This document shows positions 18,357 through 28,575 of a stretch of 44,636 nucleotides of DNA, piece by piece. Below the pieces are notes generated by a model. That model saw only the letters and a list, made by a program, of their open reading frames with translations, was not told the origin of the DNA and searched no databases. The stretch comes from Chloroflexota bacterium (GTDB taxonomy: Bacteria; Chloroflexota; Limnocylindria; Limnocylindrales; CSP1-4), in contig JANMNF010000155.1 of NCBI GenBank assembly GCA_031373765.1, positions 1 through 44,636 on the forward strand, written 5' to 3'. Every line of letters starts with the position of its first letter. The stretch's first letter is position 1. The translations under genes and the position numbers were made by a program.

Positions 18357-18914
18357 ATGAACCAGCGCACGCAACGTGTCGATGAGCTGATCCGCCAGGA
18401 GATCGGGATCATCATTTCGCGTGAGGTTTCGGACCCGAGGATCGGGTTCGTGACGATCACCGACGTGACCACGACACCGGACCTGAGCCACGCGACCGTC
18501 TCGGTCAGCTTCATCGGTAGCCCGGAGGAGCGGACGGCGAGCCTGCGTGCCCTGAGTCACGCGATGCCATTCATCCGGCGTGAGCTTGGCCGTCGCCTGA
18601 CGCTTCGACGGATCCCCGAACTCCATGTCCAGGCTGACGTGACGATCGAGCGGGGGACACGCGTCCTCAAGCTGATCAATGAACTGGCCCTCGGCAACGA
18701 CGCGCCCGAGGCCAAGGCAGAGCAGGACACGCTCCCGACCCCGGTTCCCCGGCTGCCGCACGAGGGCGACGGCCCGCCCCCGCCCATCGTCGTGCCGCCC
18801 GCACCAGCCTCCCGTAGCGCCAGGAAGAGCGGCAAGCGATCTGGCACCCGCGTCCGGCCCGCCGGCGCCTCGGCCCGGGATCGTGGCCCCAGATCGCGCC
18901 GGAAGGCGCCATGA
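18357..18914 (+). CDS. rbfA: Ribosome-binding factor A with Pro/Arg-rich tail
   Basis: RTQRVDELIRQEI, DPRIGFVTITDV..TPDL, LRRIPEL. Confidence 0.97.
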   Translation: MNQRTQRVDELIRQEIGIIISREVSDPRIGFVTITDVTTTPDLSHATVSVSFIGSPEERTASLRALSHAMPFIRRELGRRLTLRRIPELHVQADVTIERGTRVLKLINELALGNDAPEAKAEQDTLPTPVPRLPHEGDGPPPPIVVPPAPASRSARKSGKRSGTRVRPAGASARDRGPRSRRKAP

Positions 18915-19939
18915 CCGTCGCAATGAACCTCGACGCCTGGGCGATGGACGTGCCCAGGGCGGTGATCGAAGCGCTCACCAGGGGCCGTCAAGTCCTCGTT
19001 GTGAGCCACGAGAACCCGGATGCGGACACGCTCGGTGCAGCACTTGGGATCCGGACGATCCTCGCGTTCCGCGGCGCGCAGGTCACCCTCGTCTGCACGG
19101 ATGTGCCGCCTCCGCTCTATGCGTTCCTGCCGGGCATCACGGACTTCCGCACGGACCCGGATGAGGCCGTCGCCTACGACCTCCTGGTCATCGTTGACTG
19201 CGGGTCCCTCGACCGCGTTGGGGCCGTTCGGGATCGCCATCCTGCCCTGTTCGCGGCGCTGCCGACCGTAGTCATCGACCATCACGCATCGAACGGCGCT
19301 GCCGGTGCCAGCGATTGGGTCGAACCCTCCGCCGCGGCCACCTGCGAGATGGTGGCCCTCGTCGCCATGGCATTCGGGACGCCGCTCGACGTGAACGACA
19401 GTGCGATGGCAGCCGCGCTGATGGCCGGGATCATCATGGACACGGCCACGTTCGCGCACCCCAACGCGACGCCGCGAACACTTGCCGTCTCTGCGGCCCT
19501 GGTCGAAGCCGGGGCGCCGCTGTCCGAGATCTCACGACTCCTCTATCGATCGAAGCCGGGCACACAGCTCCGGTTGTTCGGGCGGGTGCTTGATCGACTG
19601 GCAACGTCGGCCGACGGCCTTGTCGTGTACTCGACCCTGACGCTGGCCGACATCGCCGATATCGGGGCGTTGAGCAGCCACTCCGAGGGAATCATCGATC
19701 TCCTGTCACAGGCCGAGGACGCCGAGGTCGCCATCCTGTTCAAGGAGGCCGGGCCGACGACGACGCGGATTTCCGTCCGCACCAGGCCCGGGGGCGTCGA
19801 CGCTACCGTTCTGACCGGAATCTTTGGTGGCGGCGGCCACGCACGCGCAGCGGGAGCTTCGGTGGCCACGAACGCCACCGAGGCGCGCACGAGCGTGCTC
19901 CGCGAGGCGGATCGGCTCGCCCTCGCCGTCCGGCGCTGA
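18911..19939 (+). CDS. nrnA: DHH/DHHA1 phosphoesterase (NrnA-type nanoRNase/pAp phosphatase)
   Basis: HENPDADT, VDCG, IDHH, DT..F, SVR, GGGGH.RAAG; rbfA-DHH-truB synteny. Confidence 0.93.
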   Translation: MTVAMNLDAWAMDVPRAVIEALTRGRQVLVVSHENPDADTLGAALGIRTILAFRGAQVTLVCTDVPPPLYAFLPGITDFRTDPDEAVAYDLLVIVDCGSLDRVGAVRDRHPALFAALPTVVIDHHASNGAAGASDWVEPSAAATCEMVALVAMAFGTPLDVNDSAMAAALMAGIIMDTATFAHPNATPRTLAVSAALVEAGAPLSEISRLLYRSKPGTQLRLFGRVLDRLATSADGLVVYSTLTLADIADIGALSSHSEGIIDLLSQAEDAEVAILFKEAGPTTTRISVRTRPGGVDATVLTGIFGGGGHARAAGASVATNATEARTSVLREADRLALAVRR

Positions 19940-20958: not shown

Positions 20959-21766
20959 CGCTCGGGTGCCCGTGCCCGAGGTCGTCCACGGGATCGATGC
21001 GCTCGCGCGTGACCATGGACGGCTGTTCGTCGTCGTTGGCGTATTTGATGGCCTGCACCTGGGCCACGCGTACCTGCTTCGCCACCTGAAGACCGCGGCG
21101 CAGGTGCGAAATGCCCGCACGGCTGTCATCACCTTCGATCACCATCCGGACGAGATCCTCATCGGCTCCGCCCCGCCCCTCCTGTGCGATCCGGACGACC
21201 GCCTCGAGCTTCTCGCTGAAGCCGGCGTCGATGTGACGATCGTGCAGACCTTCGACGACGCTCTTCGGATGACCCCATACGACGCCTTCATTCGACGAAT
21301 CGCCGATCGGGTCGATCTGGCCGGATTGCTCATGACGCCGGATGCGGCGTTCGGCCACGAACGCAAGGGCACGCCCGACGCCGTGGCGGCCCTTGGCGCC
21401 GAACTCGGCTACGACGTCGTCGTGGTCCCACCCATGGACCTCGGTGGCCATCCCGTGCGCAGCGGCGAGATCCGCGCGGCCATTGCCGACGGTGATCTCG
21501 GGCGCGCGGCCGGAATGCTCGGACGACCCTATGTCGTTCGCGGGTTCGTCGACCAGGCGAAGGCGACGGACGTACGGCTGCGGTTTCCGATGCCGGTAGC
21601 GCTGCCTCCGCACGGCGAGTATCGGGTTCGCGCCGGAACGGATCTCGACCCCTCGGCGAATGCAAGACCTGATATCGCCGACATCGATGTCAACGGCATT
21701 GTTCACCTGCGAGACGGCTCGTTCCTCGCGACCTCCACGCGCGTTCGGGTGACGTTCGAGTCCTGA
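20951..21766 (+). CDS. ribF: RibF-like FAD synthetase: FMN adenylyltransferase domain intact, riboflavin kinase domain degenerate
   Basis: GVFDGLHLGH, ITFDHHP, FG..RKG, EIR.AI..GD...A..MLGRPY; no GFPTAN afterwards. Start is one of GTG 20951, 20966 or 20972. Confidence 0.85.
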   Translation: MGDARVPVPEVVHGIDALARDHGRLFVVVGVFDGLHLGHAYLLRHLKTAAQVRNARTAVITFDHHPDEILIGSAPPLLCDPDDRLELLAEAGVDVTIVQTFDDALRMTPYDAFIRRIADRVDLAGLLMTPDAAFGHERKGTPDAVAALGAELGYDVVVVPPMDLGGHPVRSGEIRAAIADGDLGRAAGMLGRPYVVRGFVDQAKATDVRLRFPMPVALPPHGEYRVRAGTDLDPSANARPDIADIDVNGIVHLRDGSFLATSTRVRVTFES

Positions 21767-21859
21767 CATGGGCGACAACCCGAGACGCGCCCGGACGCGT
21801 CGCCTGCGCCGCGCCAGAGCCGGCGCTGATCGGGCCGCCTTGATCAATCGGGCCGTCCC

Positions 21860-21868
21860 TGCTAGCAT
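21860..21868 (+). promoter_or_regulatory. Extended -10 promoter (TGnTAGCAT) for rpsO-pnp
   Basis: TGCTAGCAT about 57 nt before the rpsO start. Confidence 0.5.
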
Positions 21869-21924
21869 GGGTCGGTCATACAGAAATGGAATGCATACAG
21901 TCACGTTCGCTTTCGGAGGAACGA

Positions 21925-22194
21925 GTGCCGCTCGCGCGGGATGAAAAGCAGGAGATCATGACCGGGTTTGCCGTCAAGGACGGTGATACCGGCTCGCCCG
22001 AAGTTCAGGTTGCGCTCCTCACGGGGCGGATCACAGGGCTGACGGAGCATCTTCGGAGCTTTCCCAAGGACAACCATTCGCGCCGCGGACTCCTCAAGCT
22101 CGTCGGCCAGCGCCGTCGCCTTCTCGCCTATCTCGTGAAGAAGGACAACTCGCGCTACCGCGCCGTCATCGCACGGCTCGGACTTCGCCGCTAG
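21925..22194 (+). CDS. rpsO: 30S ribosomal protein S15
   Basis: [20 protein letters not shown]....[21 protein letters not shown]; GTG 21925 after GGAGGA gives 89 aa. Confidence 0.99.
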
Positions 22195-22209
22195 CGCCAC
22201 GCCGCTGTT

Positions 22210-22232
22210 GACCCTGGGTTGATCCCGGGGTC
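22210..22232 (+). promoter_or_regulatory. rpsO-pnp intercistronic hairpin
   Basis: GACCCTGGG-TTGAT-CCCGGGGTC, a 9-bp stem with one G-U pair; terminator or processing stem. Confidence 0.45.
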
Positions 22233-22312
22233 TTGCGCATCGGGCGCCCGTCGAGACCGGCCCAGCCAGGAACCCTCGTCACCTCCTCCGCGAACAGGAG
22301 GAACACACACCA

Positions 22313-24895
22313 GTGTCCACAACTCTTGAAACCGAGATCGGTGGTCGAACGCTGACCATCGAAACGGGCAAGCTCGCTCGTCTCGCCGGTGGCGCAGTCA
22401 CCATCCGCTACGGCGACACCATGGTGCTCGGCACCGCCAACCGCTCCGATCCACGCCCGGGACTCGATTTCTTCCCGCTCACCGTGGAATTCGAAGAGCG
22501 CATGTACGCCGCGGGCAAGATCCCGGGCGGCTTCATCAAGCGCGAGGCGCGAGCCTCCGAGGCAGCAACCCTTGCGGCCCGCCTCACGGACCGGCCGATC
22601 CGGCCGTTGTTCCCCGAGGGCTACAAGGACGACATCCAGCTCGTCATCACGGTCCTTTCAACGGACCAGGAGAATGAGCCCGACGTCATCGGGACCGTGG
22701 CTGCGTCCGCGGCGCTGACGATCAGCGAGATCCCGTTCAACGGGCCCGTCGGGGCCGTCCGCATCGGACGGATCGATGGTGAGTTCGTTGTCAACCCGAC
22801 GTACAGCCAGCTGGCCGACTCGGAGCTCGACCTCATCGTCTCCGGCACGCGTGACGCGATCATGATGGTCGAGGCCGGCGCGAAGCTCCTTCCGGAAGAC
22901 GTGATGGCCGAGGCCATCCTCTTCGGGCACAAGGCGCTCCAGCCGCTCATCGATATCCAGCTTGAGCTCCAGAAGCTCGTCGGCAAGGCCAAGAGCACGC
23001 CGTTCCTCGAGGCCGGCCTCGGTTCGGTCCTCGAATTCGGTCGTGCGGTCGAAGCCGGCGAAGAGTTCGTCGTCGTTGACGTCGAAACGACCGGCACGGA
23101 TCCGAAGATGGCCGATCTCGTCGAGATCGCGGCCGTCAAGGTCAAGGGCGGCAAGATCACCGACCGGTGGTCCACGCTCGTGAACCCGGGACGCGCTATC
23201 GTCGGCAACCAGATGCACGGCATCAAGGACGCGGACGTCAAGAAGGCGCCGAGCCCCGCAGAAGCTGCCAAGCAGGCGGTCAAGTTCATCGGCAAGTCCA
23301 AGGTCGTCGGCCACTCGGTCGGGTTCGATCTGGGCTTCCTCGAGGCGGCCCTGGCCGACGGAACCCACTTCGAATCCGGTTCCTACCTCGACACCCTGAC
23401 GATCGCCCGCGAGGGCTACCCGGATCTCGAGAACTACAAGCTCGAGACCCTTTCAAGGTTCTTCGGCATCGAACTGTCGCAGGCACATCGTGCCGGCCCG
23501 GACGCCGAGGCCACCGCGAACCTCCTCATCTGGTTCGGCAACGACCTGCCGGGACGCCTGAAGGCGCTTCGCGAGGGGATTGCCGCTTCCATCCGGGCAA
23601 CGCGCTCGGGCGGGGACAGCAAGGCGCTTGCCGAGGCCGCTCGCCGCGAGGCACGGGTCAGCAAGAACCTGTTCAGCCTGACCAACAAGAAGGTCGCTCG
23701 CCAGATGGCCCTCGACGAGGGCATCCGGATGGACGGCCGCGGCCTCACGGAGCTCCGCCAGATCTCGGTCGATGTCGGCGTCCTGCCGCGCGCCCACGGG
23801 TCCGGCCTGTTCACCCGCGGTGAGACCCAGGTCCTGACCGTAGCGACCCTCGGATCGTCCTCGGACGTCCAGCGGATCGACACGATCAGCCCCAAGACCG
23901 AGAAGAAGTACATCCACCACTACAACTTCCCGCCCTACTCGACGGGCGAGAACAAGCCGATGCGTGGCCCGAGCCGTCGTGACATCGGACACGGGAACCT
24001 GGCCGAGCGGGCCCTCATCCCCGTGCTCCCGACGCATGACGAATTCCCCTACGTCATCCGGCTGGTCTCCGAGTGCCTGAGCTCCAACGGCTCGACCTCG
24101 ATGGCCTCGACCTGTGGATCGACGCTCGCCCTCATGGACGCCGGCGTGCCGATCTCGGCCCCGGTTGCCGGTGCGGCGATGGGCCTGATCAGCGAGCCGG
24201 ACGGCCGGTTCGTGGTCCTGACCGACATCCTCGGCAAGGAGGACTCGGTCGGCGACATGGACTTCAAGGTGACCGGTACGCGGGACGGCATCACCGCCCT
24301 GCAGATGGACATCAAGGTCCAGGGCATCAACGAGGCGATCATCCGCGGCGGCCTCAAGCAGGCCCTTGCGGCCCGTCTCGAGATCCTCGACAAGATGATG
24401 GAAGTCATGCCCGAGACTCGTGGCCAGATGAGCGACTTCGCGCCGCGCATCACCACGATCAAGATCAACCCGGAGAAGATCCGCGAGATCATCGGCAAGG
24501 GCGGATCGATGATCCGCAAGATCCAGGAAGAGACCCAGACCGAGATCAACGGCGAGGACGACGGCACCGTCGAAATCGCCGCGGTGAGCGGCGAGAACTC
24601 ACGGAAGGCGATCCAGTGGATCGAAAGCCTGACCCGTGAGGTCGAAGTCGGCGCCCTGTACCTCGGCAAGGTCACCCGGATCATGGGCTTCGGCGCCTTC
24701 GTCGAGATCCTGCCGGGCAAGGAAGGCCTCGTCCGGATCGGCGAGCTCGCCGATTACCACGTGCCGACCGTCGAGGACGTCGTGAGCGTCGGGGACGAGG
24801 TCATGGTTGTCGTGATCGAAGTCGATCGTCAGGGACGGGTCAACCTGTCCCGCAAGGCCGCCATGCAGCGACACCTGGCGAAGGATCCCGCCTGA
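22313..24895 (+). CDS. pnp: Polyribonucleotide nucleotidyltransferase (PNPase) with an inserted DEDDh exonuclease domain (860 aa)
   Basis: PH1 (DFFPLTV, KIPGGFIKRE, RLTDRPIRPLF), PH2 (RMDGR, HGSGLFTRGETQ, RRDIGHG, SNGSTSMAS, EDSVGDMDFK), KH (IIGKGG) and S1 (FGAFVEI); rpsO-pnp synteny; SD AGGAGGA. Confidence 0.99.
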   Translation: MSTTLETEIGGRTLTIETGKLARLAGGAVTIRYGDTMVLGTANRSDPRPGLDFFPLTVEFEERMYAAGKIPGGFIKREARASEAATLAARLTDRPIRPLFPEGYKDDIQLVITVLSTDQENEPDVIGTVAASAALTISEIPFNGPVGAVRIGRIDGEFVVNPTYSQLADSELDLIVSGTRDAIMMVEAGAKLLPEDVMAEAILFGHKALQPLIDIQLELQKLVGKAKSTPFLEAGLGSVLEFGRAVEAGEEFVVVDVETTGTDPKMADLVEIAAVKVKGGKITDRWSTLVNPGRAIVGNQMHGIKDADVKKAPSPAEAAKQAVKFIGKSKVVGHSVGFDLGFLEAALADGTHFESGSYLDTLTIAREGYPDLENYKLETLSRFFGIELSQAHRAGPDAEATANLLIWFGNDLPGRLKALREGIAASIRATRSGGDSKALAEAARREARVSKNLFSLTNKKVARQMALDEGIRMDGRGLTELRQISVDVGVLPRAHGSGLFTRGETQVLTVATLGSSSDVQRIDTISPKTEKKYIHHYNFPPYSTGENKPMRGPSRRDIGHGNLAERALIPVLPTHDEFPYVIRLVSECLSSNGSTSMASTCGSTLALMDAGVPISAPVAGAAMGLISEPDGRFVVLTDILGKEDSVGDMDFKVTGTRDGITALQMDIKVQGINEAIIRGGLKQALAARLEILDKMMEVMPETRGQMSDFAPRITTIKINPEKIREIIGKGGSMIRKIQEETQTEINGEDDGTVEIAAVSGENSRKAIQWIESLTREVEVGALYLGKVTRIMGFGAFVEILPGKEGLVRIGELADYHVPTVEDVVSVGDEVMVVVIEVDRQGRVNLSRKAAMQRHLAKDPA
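23066..23540 (+). other. DEDDh (DnaQ/epsilon-like) 3'-5' exonuclease domain in frame inside PNPase (about aa 252-409)
   Basis: ExoI FVVVDVETTG (D256, E258), LVEIAAV, LVNPG, HGI.D.DV..AP, ExoII GHSVGFD (D339), LDTL..AR..YP....YKL..L..FFGI, ExoIII HRAGPDA (H392, D397). Confidence 0.95.
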
Positions 24896-24912
24896 CCCTG
24901 GTTCGAACCTGG

Positions 24913-24941
24913 GAGCTCCTCGACAGCGCGTCGGGGAGCTC
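24913..24941 (+). terminator. Hairpin after pnp (probable terminator)
   Basis: GAGCTCCTCGAC-AGCGC-GTCGGGGAGCTC, a 12-bp stem with no clear U-tract. Confidence 0.6.
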
Positions 24942-25014
24942 TCGCAGAGCACGGCAGGACGGGCCCCGAATACCACCTTCAGCGGGTCGCCTCCCCGGAG
25001 GGAGCGCAACCCGC

Positions 25015-25023
25015 TGCTATACT
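25015..25023 (+). promoter_or_regulatory. Extended -10 promoter (TGnTATACT) for the asd-udg-rnj-ftsK run
   Basis: TGCTATACT, identical to the motif upstream of rplS. Confidence 0.6.
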
Positions 25024-25069
25024 CGGCCGGTGCCCGCATGATCAACCATCCCCGCGGAGCCATGCCCGG

Positions 25070-26137
25070 ATGAGCGCCCGAAGCCCACTCACCGTCGCGG
25101 TCGTCGGCGCCACCGGCGTCGTCGGTCGAACGATGGTTCAGGTACTTGCCGAACGGAACTTTCCGATCGGCGAGTTGCGCCTGCTTGCATCGGGTCGATC
25201 GGCAGGCCGCATGGTCTCAGCCGCAGGCCGGACCATCGAGATCCTCGAGGCCACGCCCGACGCGTTCCAGGGGGTCGACATTGCCCTGTTCAGCGCAGGT
25301 GGTGACATCTCAACGGAACTTGCCCCGCAGGCCGCCGCACGGGGCGCGACCGTCATCGACAACTCGTCGGCCTGGCGCATGGATCCGGCTGTGCCGCTGG
25401 TCGTGAGCCAGGTCAACCCCGACGACCTCGCCTGGCACGAGGGTATCGTCGCCAACCCGAACTGTTCGACCATGCAACTCGCGCCGATCCTCATGGCGCT
25501 CCGGGACGCGGTCGGTATCGAGCGGGTCGTCGTCGATACGTACCAGTCTGTCTCCGGGACCGGGGCGGATGCGCTGGTTGAGCTCGAGGGCCAGGTCCGG
25601 GCCCACGTTGCCGGCGAGCCCCTCACGGCTTCGGTCTACCCGCATCCGATTGCCTTCAATGCCCTTCCCGAAATCGATGTCTTCATGCCCGATGGCTCGA
25701 CGAAAGAGGAGTGGAAGGTCGTGGCCGAAAGTCGCAAGATCCTTCATCTCCCGGATCTGCGGGTTGCCTGCACGGCCGTCCGCGTCCCTGTGTTCGTGAG
25801 CCATTCCGAAGCCGTCCACGTTGAAACCACGCGCCCGATCGACCCCGACCGCGCGAGGGCGCTGTTCGCGTCCGTGCCGGGCGTGATCGTCGAGGACGTT
25901 CCGAGCCAGCACGAATATCCGCTCGCGACGCGGGCTGCGGGACGCGATGAGATCTTCGTCGGGCGGGTTCGCCAGGATGCGTCCATTGCCGACGGCCGCG
26001 GCCTCTCGATGTGGGTCGTCTCGGACAACCTGCGCAAGGGCGCCGCAACGAACGCGGTCGAGCTCGCCGAAGTCCTCGTGGCCCGAGGATGGGTCCGGGC
26101 AGCGGCACGACGCGTGGCCAATGAGGCCCGCGCGTGA
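25070..26137 (+). CDS. asd: Aspartate-semialdehyde dehydrogenase
   Basis: VVGATGVVG, IDNSSAWRM, ANPNCST, YQSVSGTG, RVPVFVSHSE, DNLRKGAA. Confidence 0.99.
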   Translation: MSARSPLTVAVVGATGVVGRTMVQVLAERNFPIGELRLLASGRSAGRMVSAAGRTIEILEATPDAFQGVDIALFSAGGDISTELAPQAAARGATVIDNSSAWRMDPAVPLVVSQVNPDDLAWHEGIVANPNCSTMQLAPILMALRDAVGIERVVVDTYQSVSGTGADALVELEGQVRAHVAGEPLTASVYPHPIAFNALPEIDVFMPDGSTKEEWKVVAESRKILHLPDLRVACTAVRVPVFVSHSEAVHVETTRPIDPDRARALFASVPGVIVEDVPSQHEYPLATRAAGRDEIFVGRVRQDASIADGRGLSMWVVSDNLRKGAATNAVELAEVLVARGWVRAAARRVANEARA

Positions 26138-26889: not shown

Positions 26890-28575
26890 ATGCCCAAACG
26901 CACCAAGCCTGAACCAGAAGGCACGCCACTCCGCATCATCCCGCTCGGCGGGGTGGGGGAGATCGGCAAGAACATGTACGTCTTCGAGTACGGCGATGAC
27001 ATCGTCGTCATCGACTGCGGCCTCATGTTCCCGGACGAGGAGATGTACGGCATCGACCTCGTCATCCCGGACATCACATACCTCAAGGAGCGCCGCGCCA
27101 ACGTCAAGGCGTTCATCATCACCCACGCTCACGAGGACCATGTCGGCGCCCTGCCGTACGTCCTGCCGGAGTTCCCGGGTGTCCCGGTCTACGCTTCGAA
27201 GCTGGCCCGGGGCCTGCTCGGCAACAAGGTCAAGGAGCACAAGCTCCACAACAATCCGCTTCTGCCGCTCGAGCCGGGCGACGAGATCCAGATCGGTCCG
27301 TTCGGCGTCGCGCCGTTCCGGGTCGGCCACTCGATCCCGGACGCGATGGGGATCGCGTTGCGCACCCCGGTGGGCGTCGTGGTTCACACGGGCGACTTCA
27401 AGTTTGACCACACGCCTGTTGACGGGCGCCTGTCCGATTTTCACATCCTGGCCCGGTTCGGCGAAGAGGGCGTCATCTGCCTCCTGTCCGACTCGACCCG
27501 AGCCGAGAATCCCGGCTACACCCCATCCGAGCGAACCGTTGGCGACGCCTTCCGCGAAATCATGGAGCCACTCGATGGCCGGGTGATCGTGGCGACGTTT
27601 GCGAGCAACATCGCGCGGGTCCAGCAGGTTCTCGATGCCGCGGCGACCTTCGATCGCAAGGTCACGGTCATCGGACGCTCGATGGAACAGAACTTCCGGA
27701 TCGCGACCGATCTCGGGTACCTCAAGCATGCGCCGGGCATGATCGTGCCCAAGGACCGCCTCAACGAGGTTCCCGACGACAAGCTGGTGATCTGCACCAC
27801 CGGAGCGCAGGGCGAGCCCATGGCGGGCCTCGCGCGGATGGCGAATCGGGACCACCGTTTCGTCGAGATCAAGACCGGCGATACCGTCATCGTGAGCGCC
27901 AGCCCGATCCCGGGCAACGAGGAATACGTCAGTCGGACGATTGACAACCTGTTCAAGGCCGGCGCCAATGTCTTCTATCACACCATCAAGCGCGCCCACG
28001 TCTCCGGTCACGCCAGCCAGGAAGAGCTCAAGCTGATGCTCGGCCTGACCAAGCCGAAGCACTTCATCCCGATCCACGGGGAATTCCGGATGCAGGTCCA
28101 GCACGGGCGCCTGGCGATCGAGACGGGCGTCGAGCCCGAGAACGTCTTCATCATCGAGAACGGCCAACCGATCGAGTTCCTGGCTGACGGGACGGCCCGT
28201 CGAGCCGCGCCGGTGCCCGCCGGCTACGTATTCGTGGATGGCCTTTCGGTTGGTGATGTCGGCGAGGTCGTATTGCGCGACCGCCGGGCCCTCGCGAATG
28301 ACGGCATGTTCATGATCGTCGTGACCGTGGACAAGCAGACCGGCAGCGTCATCGGGCGACCTGAGATCATCACCCGTGGCTTCATCCACGGCGCAGAGCA
28401 TGACCGAGTCGTCGAGGCGGCCGTCGAGCGCGTCATCAAGTCGGTCCAGACGCCGGGTGACCACATCAGCGAGGTCGCGCTGCTCAAGACCCAGATCAAG
28501 GAAGGCGTGTCCCGCTTCCTGTATGAGCAGACGAAGCGCCGTCCGATGGTCTTCCCCGTGGTCGTCGAGGTCTGA
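26890..28575 (+). CDS. rnj: Ribonuclease J
   Basis: PLGGVGEIGKNM, THAHEDHVG, HSIPD, GDFK, FASN..R, TGAQGEP, HVSGHA, PIHGE. Confidence 0.99.
   Translation: MPKRTKPEPEGTPLRIIPLGGVGEIGKNMYVFEYGDDIVVIDCGLMFPDEEMYGIDLVIPDITYLKERRANVKAFIITHAHEDHVGALPYVLPEFPGVPVYASKLARGLLGNKVKEHKLHNNPLLPLEPGDEIQIGPFGVAPFRVGHSIPDAMGIALRTPVGVVVHTGDFKFDHTPVDGRLSDFHILARFGEEGVICLLSDSTRAENPGYTPSERTVGDAFREIMEPLDGRVIVATFASNIARVQQVLDAAATFDRKVTVIGRSMEQNFRIATDLGYLKHAPGMIVPKDRLNEVPDDKLVICTTGAQGEPMAGLARMANRDHRFVEIKTGDTVIVSASPIPGNEEYVSRTIDNLFKAGANVFYHTIKRAHVSGHASQEELKLMLGLTKPKHFIPIHGEFRMQVQHGRLAIETGVEPENVFIIENGQPIEFLADGTARRAAPVPAGYVFVDGLSVGDVGEVVLRDRRALANDGMFMIVVTVDKQTGSVIGRPEIITRGFIHGAEHDRVVEAAVERVIKSVQTPGDHISEVALLKTQIKEGVSRFLYEQTKRRPMVFPVVVEV

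Follow-up and report, generated by a model that had tools for sequence, protein, structure and literature searches.

A DEDDh 3'-5' exonuclease domain inserted into the polynucleotide phosphorylase of Limnocylindria (Chloroflexota)

This work concerns the pnp gene carried by a 44,636-nt stretch of DNA from a Chloroflexota bacterium (GenBank assembly GCA_031373765.1, contig JANMNF010000155.1, positions 1 to 44,636 of the forward strand; Limnocylindria, Limnocylindrales), the whole of which is referred to below as the window. The gene encodes an 860-amino-acid (aa) polynucleotide phosphorylase (PNPase) which includes, between its two RNase PH halves, a complete DEDDh 3'-5' exonuclease domain. An initial annotation, made from the sequence alone, had described an rpsO-linked pnp of this length with a DEDDh domain embedded in the helical domain; the open reading frame (ORF), the Pfam and TIGR03591 matches and the location of rpsO at 21886-22194 bear this out. 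The gene is organised as follows:

22313-24895, + strand: pnp, an 860-aa PNPase with an inserted DEDDh exonuclease domain (ORF with GTG start; Pfam; TIGR03591)
22313-22993, + strand: RNase PH domain 1 (PH1), aa 1-227 (Pfam RNase_PH and RNase_PH_C; aligns with E. coli PNPase residues 10-230)
22994-23065, + strand: N-flank, aa 228-251, a fast-evolving linker whose origin is not traceable (mean pairwise identity 0.42; ratio of non-synonymous to synonymous substitution rates, dN/dS, 0.141)
23066-23539, + strand: DEDDh 3'-5' exonuclease domain, aa 252-409, with D256, E258, H334, D339, H392 and D397 (PF00929 over its full length)
23540-23725, + strand: C-flank, aa 410-471, of which the last helix alone is traceable to the end of the PNPase helical domain
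23726-24412, + strand: RNase PH domain 2 (PH2), aa 472-700, with the phosphorolytic site (alignment to E. coli PNPase)
24452-24625, + strand: KH domain, aa 714-771 (Pfam KH_1, E 5.3e-10)
24641-24856, + strand: S1 domain, aa 777-848 (Pfam S1, E 9.6e-18)

With the NCBIfam equivalog model for PNPase, TIGR03591, the protein scores 933.5 bits against a cut-off of 525.05, the match being split in two by the insert (its second part, aa 441-849, corresponds to profile positions 280-688). Pfam finds two RNase_PH, two RNase_PH_C, one KH_1 and one S1 domain in the order of a PNPase (two RNase PH, then KH, then S1), with RNase_T (PF00929) situated between the PH halves. The proposed succession RNase_PH, RNase_T, RNase_PH, KH, S1 is thus the one recovered by profile search. 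PF00929 is matched over its entire length (aa 253-405, profile positions 1-164 of 164, E 4.7e-27, 96 bits against a gathering score of 24), and the domain carries the four acidic residues D-E-D-D together with a histidine, not a tyrosine, in ExoIII, as expected for a DEDDh exonuclease. The residues to which the initial annotation had drawn attention all occupy their predicted positions (D256, E258, H334-S335 as the 'HS' of ExoII, D339, H392 and D397, as well as K227 and R472-x-D474-G475-R476). As a member of the PNPase family, the protein would be expected to form a homotrimeric ring with phosphorolytic activity. A GGAGGA Shine-Dalgarno sequence lies about 11 nt upstream of the GTG start. A PADLOC search returned DEDDh matches at the domain level only, with no sign of a defence system.

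The insert falls within the alpha-helical domain. Residues 231-294 of E. coli PNPase (64 aa) correspond to aa 228-451 of the fused protein (224 aa), a gap about 160 aa above normal, and residues 235-309 of the PNPase structure 5yjj correspond to aa 220-453. The end of the helical domain is recognisable: TIGR03591 resumes at aa 441, and PNPases from the Protein Data Bank align from aa 415-454 onwards (8zaw and 4nbq from aa 415-417). In an hhalign comparison with the canonical helical domain, only the last 24 columns aligned, in register, as a weak match (E 0.015, probability 3%). No significant BLASTP match was obtained for the flanks against either the unfused helical domain or ExoDinG, the exonuclease-helicase fusion considered below, and by BLASTP and hhalign aa 228-246 and aa 406-446 matched neither the canonical helical domain nor the region that follows the exonuclease in ExoDinG. 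For this reason the C-terminal helix alone is demonstrably ancestral PNPase. The suggestion of an insertion rather than a replacement therefore holds in part: the length arithmetic fits and the last helix (about aa 441-471) is that of PNPase, but aa 228-246 and 406-446 resemble neither parent. Insertion into the helical domain is the best reading of these alignments. A search for repeats at the insert junctions revealed short repeats at chance level and nothing more.

The genome to which the window belongs is fragmented (360 contigs), which could raise the suspicion of a chimeric assembly or a mis-joined contig. Against this, hundreds of genomes that were assembled independently, some of them in only 1-4 contigs, contain the frame without interruption. 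The full fused protein is matched without stops at 78-97% identity in other genomes of the window's genus and at 68-70% in a second family with genomes of 1.0-1.4 Mb. A query spanning both insert junctions (aa 200-500, 301 aa) matches contiguously in 196 of the 201 genomes of the order, among them every one of the 121 of high quality, and 32 of 32 genera are represented; completeness is 60-88% in the five genomes that lack a match. The search for the same architecture in other genomes, which had been recommended along with a check of coverage across the junctions, thus gave an uninterrupted gene nearly throughout the order. As for coverage, sequencing run X1, which may be the window's own source run, provides one contig across 22800-23900 with one difference, and X5, a run of a different study, provides contigs of 209 and 347 bases covering 22853-23061 and 23389-23735 with zero differences, both junctions being bridged. 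The proportion of G+C at third codon positions (GC3) is the same in the insert (0.87) as in the remainder of the gene (0.88). Because the same frame is present in 196 of 201 genomes and contigs from another study's run lie over both junctions, the fused pnp is neither a matter of chance nor an artefact of assembly; this explanation is excluded, and the chance of a chimera is negligible.

The class comprises abundant, uncultivated bacteria of soil, sediment and freshwater (PMC13212565). Its genomes were sampled at a completeness of at least 80%. Contiguous matches to the junction query were found in 115 of 115 genomes of family f1, 13 of 13 of f2 and 105 of 110 of f4 (98 of 103 without unpublished genomes). 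Family f4 belongs to another order; its ORFs of about 870-950 aa are some 40-46% identical to the window's protein over the junction piece. Families f3 (61 of 61; 58 of 58 without unpublished genomes) and f5 (1 of 1) gave weak split matches only. The ten unpublished genomes of the sample are G277, G283, G325, G370, G373, G359 and G301 (f4) and G286, G264 and G308 (f3). In each of the five f3 and f5 genomes examined, an ordinary PNPase of 736-739 aa is present, which matches the window's protein solely on either side of the insert, and the DEDDh domain sits elsewhere, outside PNPase. These unfused PNPases (L034-L038) have an Arg/Gly-rich C-terminal tail extending about 45-50 alignment columns past the end of the fused ones.

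Beyond the class, 45 of 401 genomes in a sample of the phylum matched at E <= 1e-30; all 45 belong to f1, f2 or f4, and the others gave no match (0 of 356). A HMMER search of 1.84 billion representative proteins returned 56 matches at E <= 1e-30. Among the best 150 matches, 37 include both exonuclease and PH-domain sequence (PH identity 50-97%) and 113 the exonuclease only, 20 of the latter being short fragments at 55% identity or more. Titled genome records with a full-length match to the insert number 22, of which 19 are Chloroflexota metagenome-assembled genomes (MAGs) named Candidatus Limnocylindria or Limnocylindrales, uncultured Chloroflexia or similar. The other three (L063, L067 and L068) are 2-16 kb contigs filed under Verrucomicrobiia, Patescibacteria and Polarisedimenticolia MAGs, in which the insert is 64-78% identical; they are probably mis-binned Limnocylindria contigs. 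In public protein sets, 1310 of the 8000 proteins scored matched at E <= 1e-10, and the best 120 all carry PF00929 and PF01138 in precomputed Pfam lists. Their public names include 'polyribonucleotide nucleotidyltransferase', 'DNA polymerase III epsilon subunit family exonuclease', 'exonuclease domain-containing protein' and 'hypothetical protein'.

Many public pnp gene calls (P0009, P0022, P0038, P0045, P0053, P0065, P0093 and P0097) are riddled with frameshifts, with Arg/Pro/Ser-rich out-of-frame stretches, and the apparent diversity of the family is therefore inflated in clustered protein sets. Candidate lineages with a decayed insert, or with an independent fusion, identified by a weak or missing RNase_T match (P0053, P0045, P0093, P0097, P0065 and others), were rejected on these grounds: they are frameshifted gene calls of the same lineage.

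Conservation of the exonuclease site was followed in 43 fused sequences, the window and 42 others from f1, f2 and f4. D256, E258, H334, D339, D360, H392 and D397 are invariant in all 43, even though pairwise identity of the domain falls to 31%; the DEDDh residues noted initially are thus conserved among homologues. The residue following the ExoII histidine is N in 29 sequences and S in 14. When aligned with Staphylococcus aureus DinG (SaDinG, chain 8zef), D256/E258, H334, D339, H392 and D397 correspond to D10/E12, H90, D95, H149 and D154. In SaDinG the five DEDDh residues are essential, H90 holds the phosphate of the second nucleotide and is required for digestion down to single nucleotides, and the position next to the ExoII histidine is not catalytic (PMC12345164).

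The phosphorolytic site is equally well preserved. R398/R399, S437-S439, D486, D492 and K494 of E. coli PNPase (7ogk), which we take to be the phosphate- and metal-binding residues of PH2, correspond to R555/R556, S594/T595/S596, D644, D650 and K652, and these are invariant in 39 of 39 fused sequences, as expected of a PNPase. Together with the Pfam matches, this alignment agrees with the initial statement that the PNPase catalytic motifs, KH and S1 are retained. The C-flank also has conserved basic residues (R415, R428, R445, K459 and R463). Pooled dN/dS over the 16 closest pairs, which share sequences and are not independent, is 0.072 for PH1, 0.141 for the N-flank, 0.075 for the DEDDh domain, 0.126 for the C-flank, 0.038 for PH2 and 0.034 for KH-S1. 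Values from all pairs, or from moderately close ones, were set aside on account of saturation at synonymous sites, GC3 being 0.88. Both catalytic sets are conserved, and the insert is under strong purifying selection.

These observations bear on whether the inserted domain still cuts. It could have become a binding or regulatory module, for example one that gates access of phosphate or nucleoside diphosphates (NDPs) or that docks partners: control over access to the active site has been ascribed to the PNPase helical domain (PMC6181284), and pseudo-exonuclease variants of DinG exist (PMC11981726). We consider this very improbable, however, given that neither the five catalytic residues nor the substrate-threading histidine vary in any of the 43 sequences, which come from two orders, and that dN/dS of the insert is as low as that of PH1. 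The serine found in place of asparagine beside the ExoII histidine in 14 of the 43 lies at the position that is dispensable for catalysis in SaDinG.

Profile comparisons were used to place the insert among DEDDh enzymes. For aa 250-410 the top NCBIfam models are DEDD-exonuclease (PRK07883), DinG (NF005981) and PolC. Against solved structures, the insert profile ranks the PolC exonuclease first (E 3e-37), then PolC, ExoDinG 8zef (3e-30) and Cas2-DEDDh; further down come DnaQ/epsilon (about 1e-19), ExoX, RNase T (1.2e-11 to 6.9e-9) and Orn. The initial assignment to an epsilon/PolC/DinG type of exonuclease is in line with this ranking, the insert grouping with PolC, DinG and epsilon and not with Orn or RNase T. 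It does not belong to the Orn/REXO2 family, Orn chains being matched at E 2.8e-4 to 8.8e-4 over profile positions 20-48 (the ExoI motif) only, nor to that of RNase T, whose chains are well behind PolC and DinG. Nor is it a DnaQ: TIGR01406 (dnaQ_proteo) gives 68.7 bits against a cut-off of 222.7, and the domain is part of PNPase instead of a separate subunit of about 240 aa. Only TIGR00573, a broad domain model, is passed, and narrowly (72.7 against 71.5). NF005981 identifies the exonuclease module of ExoDinG at aa 250-408 only (127.7 bits against a cut-off of 789), and the fused PNPase has no helicase domain (DEAD + Helicase_C_2). Since it has no DinG/XPD helicase core, it is the bearer of an ExoDinG module and not a member of the ExoDinG family (NF005981 / TIGR01407).

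In the sister families f3 and f5, the DEDDh domain forms the N-terminus of a DinG helicase with an ORF of about 890-910 aa and a four-cysteine cluster, for which NF005981 is the best family, matched over its full length at about 600 bits, under the cut-off of 789. Such fusions of an exonuclease to a DinG helicase are the 'ExoDinG' of the DinG review (PMC11981726). Residues 247-405 of the fused PNPase are 40% identical to residues 3-163 of a sister-family ExoDinG (BLASTP, E 6e-25). The four cysteines of the f3 and f5 proteins (L138:1058-3733:- and L140:1050-3782:-; P0151 and P0152) lie in the iron-sulphur (FeS) cluster region. The ExoDinG studied in Bacillales and Lactobacillales are without those cysteines, and the review asks for an 'ExoDinG with intact FeS domain' (PMC11981726), for which the f3 and f5 proteins are candidates.

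A tree was calculated from 81 exonuclease cores, and in it the PNPase inserts make up a single clade (ultrafast bootstrap, UFBoot, 99 / SH-aLRT 96). The 29-row cluster to which they belong (94/80) also takes in one Calditrichota sequence and a group of Chloroflexota ExoDinG (99/88), the class's own ExoDinG (98/97) being part of that group; six of six neighbours checked are exonuclease-helicase fusions. In approximately unbiased (AU) tests, a clade of the inserts and the class's own ExoDinG was not rejected (p = 0.30), and holding the inserts with the Chloroflexota ExoDinG group, a grouping named after the tree had been seen, gave a better likelihood than the free quick search (p = 0.77). A PNPase-core tree was calculated from which the insert and helical columns had been removed; five PNPases of other Chloroflexota families served as outgroups and lie outside, on long branches and not as a single clade. 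Here 19 fused proteins are found on one side of a branch supported at 100/100 and the unfused f3 and f5 proteins on another (100/99). The split between f4 and f1+f2 is identical in the two trees and therefore indicates vertical descent. On the evidence of these phylogenies, the insert arose once.

The presence of the insert coincides with the absence of a DinG helicase. The helicase family PF13307 was found in 21 of 21 f3 genomes and in the one f5 genome, as against 1 of 44 in f1, none in the window's genome (G000), 0 of 5 in f2 and 2 of 49 in f4. Three exceptions occur within the fused clade: one is a giant multi-helicase protein, another a 107-aa frame that lies at the end of a contig, and the third a weak match (8e-7). 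With an ExoDinG query, the pnp insert (39-46% identity) is the sole match in five of five fused genomes of 92-99% completeness. In a further sample of the phylum this query has matches in 96 of 134 genomes outside the class, about 67 of which begin within the first nine residues of the query, and in none of 17 f1, f2 and f4 genomes. The pnp insert is the sole RNase_T-family domain found in the window's genome, in 38 of 45 f1 and in 44 of 49 f4 genomes (41 of 46 without unpublished ones), and the ExoDinG domain is the sole one in 16 of 21 f3 genomes. The simplest history compatible with these sequences is one in which ExoDinG came first, a copy of its exonuclease module entered pnp on a single occasion and the remainder of the ExoDinG gene disappeared afterwards.

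Some further proteins were encountered in these searches. The giant multi-helicase protein (G073, L155:2190-7499:+; >1770 aa) includes a partial, sub-threshold RNase_T match, a DinG-type Helicase_C_2 and a second DEAD/Helicase_C module that is Cas3-like at its C-terminus; it is sporadic, occurring in 1 of 45 f1 genomes. An additional stand-alone DEDDh protein of 181 aa occurs in four of five f2 genomes (L152:736-1278:+, G025), and one of 306 aa in a genome of the window's genus (G006, L154:355-1272:-); neither reaches an NCBIfam cut-off. No stand-alone dnaQ was found in the window's genome or in the class sample. Each of five genomes has two DnaE-type genes, and in G000, G051 and G229 one copy has a split Pfam match, which suggests that this copy carries an insertion.

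The gene neighbourhood is that of a translation and RNA-processing cluster, in the order ispG, nusA, infB, a DHH/DHHA1 (NrnA-like) gene, truB, ribF, rpsO, pnp, asd, a uracil-DNA glycosylase family gene (1.2 kb downstream of pnp) and RNase J. The features concerned are:

18911-19939, + strand: NrnA-like DHH/DHHA1 gene, in the pnp cluster
21886-22194, + strand: rpsO (ribosomal protein S15), the canonical upstream neighbour of pnp (Pfam Ribosomal_S15, E 7.7e-34)
22195-22312, + strand: rpsO-pnp leader; a GC-rich hairpin follows rpsO, and a GGAGGA ribosome-binding site precedes the GTG start (RNA folding)
26890-28575, + strand: RNase J gene, 2 kb downstream of pnp

Three RNA-decay enzymes, the NrnA-like protein, PNPase and RNase J, are thus encoded within 10 kb. 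The GC-rich hairpin of the leader (GACCCUGGG...CCCGGGGUC), directly 3' of rpsO, recalls the processed leader hairpin of E. coli pnp; folding of 22195-22330 gives -51.9 kcal/mol, which is not exceptional (z -1.55). An Rfam scan of the whole window gave no matches, and a promoter and terminator scan of 21700-25300 found none. RNase Y was found in five of five class genomes checked and RNase E/G in none of the five. RNase R/II (RNB domain) was found in none of five genomes checked and in none of 29 class members in the phylum sample; it is present in 24 of 251 Chloroflexota genomes of at least 90% completeness. In the window's genome there is no RNase D/NrnC-type domain above the cut-off, and no Orn or RNase T gene was found. 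The cellular setting is a lean, Bacillus-like RNA-decay kit. Compensation for a missing RNase R was rejected as a clade-specific cause of the fusion, RNB proteins being rare across the phylum.

This inventory is relevant to one role that the initial annotation had envisaged for the DEDDh site, that of finishing off short products. PNPase leaves short oligonucleotides, and a built-in nanoRNase resembling Orn or REXO2 might convert the 2-5-nt products of phosphorolysis. The lack of any detected Orn, RNase T or RNase D/NrnC-type gene in the window's genome would fit, and human REXO2 scavenges nanoRNAs from the PNPase-SUV3 degradosome and so supports it (PMC7261184). However, the NrnA-like gene is present in five of five genomes checked, fused and unfused, and lies within a few kb of pnp in all four besides the window. 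There is consequently no nanoRNase gap specific to the fused clade, and such a gap was rejected as a clade-specific cause. The insert, moreover, barely matches Orn (E >= 2.8e-4, ExoI motif only), compared with 3e-37 for the PolC exonuclease. The proposal is weakened by both points, and we regard it as improbable.

To our knowledge, the domain architecture of PNPase is among the most constant in RNA biology. Canonical PNPases (E. coli, Streptomyces antibioticus, Caulobacter crescentus and S. aureus; 7ogk, 3cdi, 1e3h, 4aid and 5yjj) share with the fused protein the domain order, the conserved phosphate and metal residues and the rpsO-pnp synteny. The fused protein differs by about 160 extra residues, which amount to a complete second nuclease domain, and by a change of the FFRR loop to FIKR; no PNPase of the fused architecture is found among solved structures. 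The loop (aa 72-78, nt 22526-22546) reads GGFIKRE in all fused proteins and GSFPRRE in the unfused sister families, the E. coli FFRR pore loop being GSFFRRE. ExoDinG (S. aureus, Bacillus subtilis and Listeria monocytogenes; 8zef) has the same exonuclease module, all six functional residues being common to both, but in the fused PNPase the module is internal and not N-terminal, its host is an RNA phosphorylase, and no superfamily 2 helicase is present in the protein or in the window's genome. PolC-type DNA polymerase III, the closest solved relative of the insert (2p1j and 9qpc), provides a precedent for this DEDDh subfamily as an internal insert: the PolC exonuclease sits within the PHP domain, and the domain order in P0055 fits this. 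Its host, in contrast, is a replicative polymerase and its role DNA proofreading.

Partnerships of comparable enzymes are also known. In eukaryotes the exosome, a PH-type ring, is paired with Rrp6, a hydrolytic 3'-5' exonuclease of the DEDD type. The Caulobacter degradosome similarly pairs PNPase with RNase D (PMC4245959). In both of these the partners are separate polypeptides, kept together by contacts between the proteins, and the hydrolase (RNase D or Rrp6) is DEDDy, unlike the fused PNPase, where it is DEDDh and covalently attached, so that a 3:3 stoichiometry is fixed. In human PNPase-SUV3 and REXO2, a PNPase and a DEDDh hydrolase likewise cooperate in RNA decay (PMC7261184). REXO2 is, however, an Orn homologue, a separate dimer and a nanoRNA specialist, and the insert is remote from Orn. 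The initial annotation knew of no description of a fused architecture, and our literature search, which did not cover supplementary files, found no PNPase with a DEDD exonuclease domain. The available text of the DinG-family review (PMC11981726) nowhere mentions PNPase or Chloroflexota, nor does that of a 2026 paper on Limnocylindria genomics (PMC13212565) mention PNPase, DinG or exonuclease. The parts are known, the combination is not.

On balance, we lean towards an account in which a housekeeping PNPase took up the ExoDinG module once, passed it on vertically while the helicase gene was lost, and now has two 3'-5' sites per protomer acting mostly on RNA. In the ancestor of the two orders, the N-terminal DEDDh module of an ExoDinG-type protein would have been inserted into the alpha-helical domain of PNPase; the fused gene would then have been inherited vertically, and the ExoDinG gene with its helicase lost. 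Each protomer of the trimer would possess a phosphorolytic site in PH2 and a metal-dependent hydrolytic site in the insert, the latter lying in the helical domain beside the entrance to the PH2 active site. The three hydrolytic sites of a trimer may, as the initial annotation suggested from the place of the helical domain, lie on the face of the ring opposite KH and S1. A captured single-stranded 3' end could be degraded either by phosphorolysis in PH2, to NDPs, or by hydrolysis in the DEDDh site, to nucleoside monophosphates. The PNPase ring and its KH and S1 domains would deliver such ends to the nuclease, a task formerly of the DinG scaffold. The likeliest substrates would be RNA 3' ends such as those of unprocessed or defective rRNA and decay intermediates; single-stranded DNA (ssDNA) or the RNA strand of R-loops may also be used.

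A choice between two sites in each protomer is suggested by the dual RNase and DNase nature of the donor module and by the control of access to PH2 that is ascribed to the helical domain. S. aureus ExoDinG degrades both ssDNA and single-stranded RNA (ssRNA) (PMC11981726). In Listeria, DinG acts as a 3'-5' exoribonuclease, with unprocessed rRNA as a substrate both in vitro and in vivo; a mutant in its ATPase motif retains nuclease activity, and the authors liken DinG to RNase R in its role (PMC12774634). The PNPase helical domain, for its part, is thought to regulate phosphate and NDP access to the active site (PMC6181284) and in human PNPase contacts RNA entering from the bottom of the ring (PMC12685370).

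It might alternatively be supposed that in the same fusion the DEDDh site acts mainly on DNA or R-loops. The insert ranks among DNA exonucleases in the comparison with solved structures, and a gene of the uracil-DNA glycosylase family is situated 1.2 kb downstream of pnp. The B. subtilis DinG breaks down ssDNA as well as the RNA strand in hybrids, and it clears R-loops (PMC12525004); the SaDinG nuclease is required in crosslink repair (PMC12345164); and for PNPase itself a role as a DNase and in repair is documented in both B. subtilis and E. coli (PMC2709576, PMC3241651, PMC5379764). Crosslink repair by SaDinG nevertheless needs the helicase too, which is gone in the fused clade; the host is an RNA enzyme encoded within a translation and RNA-processing gene cluster; and the RNA role of Listeria DinG in vivo is independent of its ATPase motif (PMC12774634). 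We therefore consider a mainly DNA-directed site rather unlikely.

Several points nevertheless weigh against the RNA-directed account that we prefer. Among solved structures, those closest to the insert belong to DNA exonucleases (PolC, followed by DinG and then epsilon), DNA is the preferred substrate of Listeria DinG in vitro (PMC12774634), B. subtilis DinG does not cut ssRNA with Mg2+ (PMC12525004) and crosslink repair by S. aureus DinG needs nuclease and helicase both (PMC12345164); because of these relatives and preferences, a role primarily on RNA is not secure. The general lack of RNase R/II in the phylum provides no explanation for a fusion confined to one clade. The grouping with ExoDinG is moderately supported (94/80), and the inserts branch outside the clade of the class's own ExoDinG. 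The complementary pattern of insert and helicase is without statistical weight since it reflects one event in one lineage, whose members are kin and not independent. In two RNA libraries, contigs cover parts of the insert (e.g. 23063-23242), none of the listed pieces crossing a junction, and this cover may stem from DNA carry-over; no meaning is attached to bins without RNA cover, two in X15 and eight in X17. Finally, the activity, substrates and geometry of the insert in the trimer are predicted from sequence, and the orientation and accessibility of the DEDDh site may prove unfavourable.

A second, chemically different nuclease has thus been built into PNPase and kept under strong selection in an uncultivated class. 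For annotation, recognition of the fused protein would allow its inconsistent public names to be corrected, and the insertion is a clean molecular marker of the clade formed by f1, f2 and f4. The fusion provides a natural case for the cooperation of phosphorolytic and hydrolytic 3'-5' decay on one scaffold. The role of the ExoDinG nuclease is debated between DNA repair and rRNA quality control, and here evolution has parted the nuclease from the helicase. We tentatively entertain the possibility that the fused PNPase is a single-polypeptide counterpart of the exosome and Rrp6, an RNase PH-type ring with three covalently attached hydrolytic DEDDh sites by the RNA path, in which phosphorolytic and hydrolytic 3'-5' decay would proceed jointly on one captured RNA and which would have replaced ExoDinG altogether. 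If so, the selected function of the ExoDinG nuclease in this phylum would be RNA surveillance, for example the removal of unprocessed rRNA, independently of the helicase.

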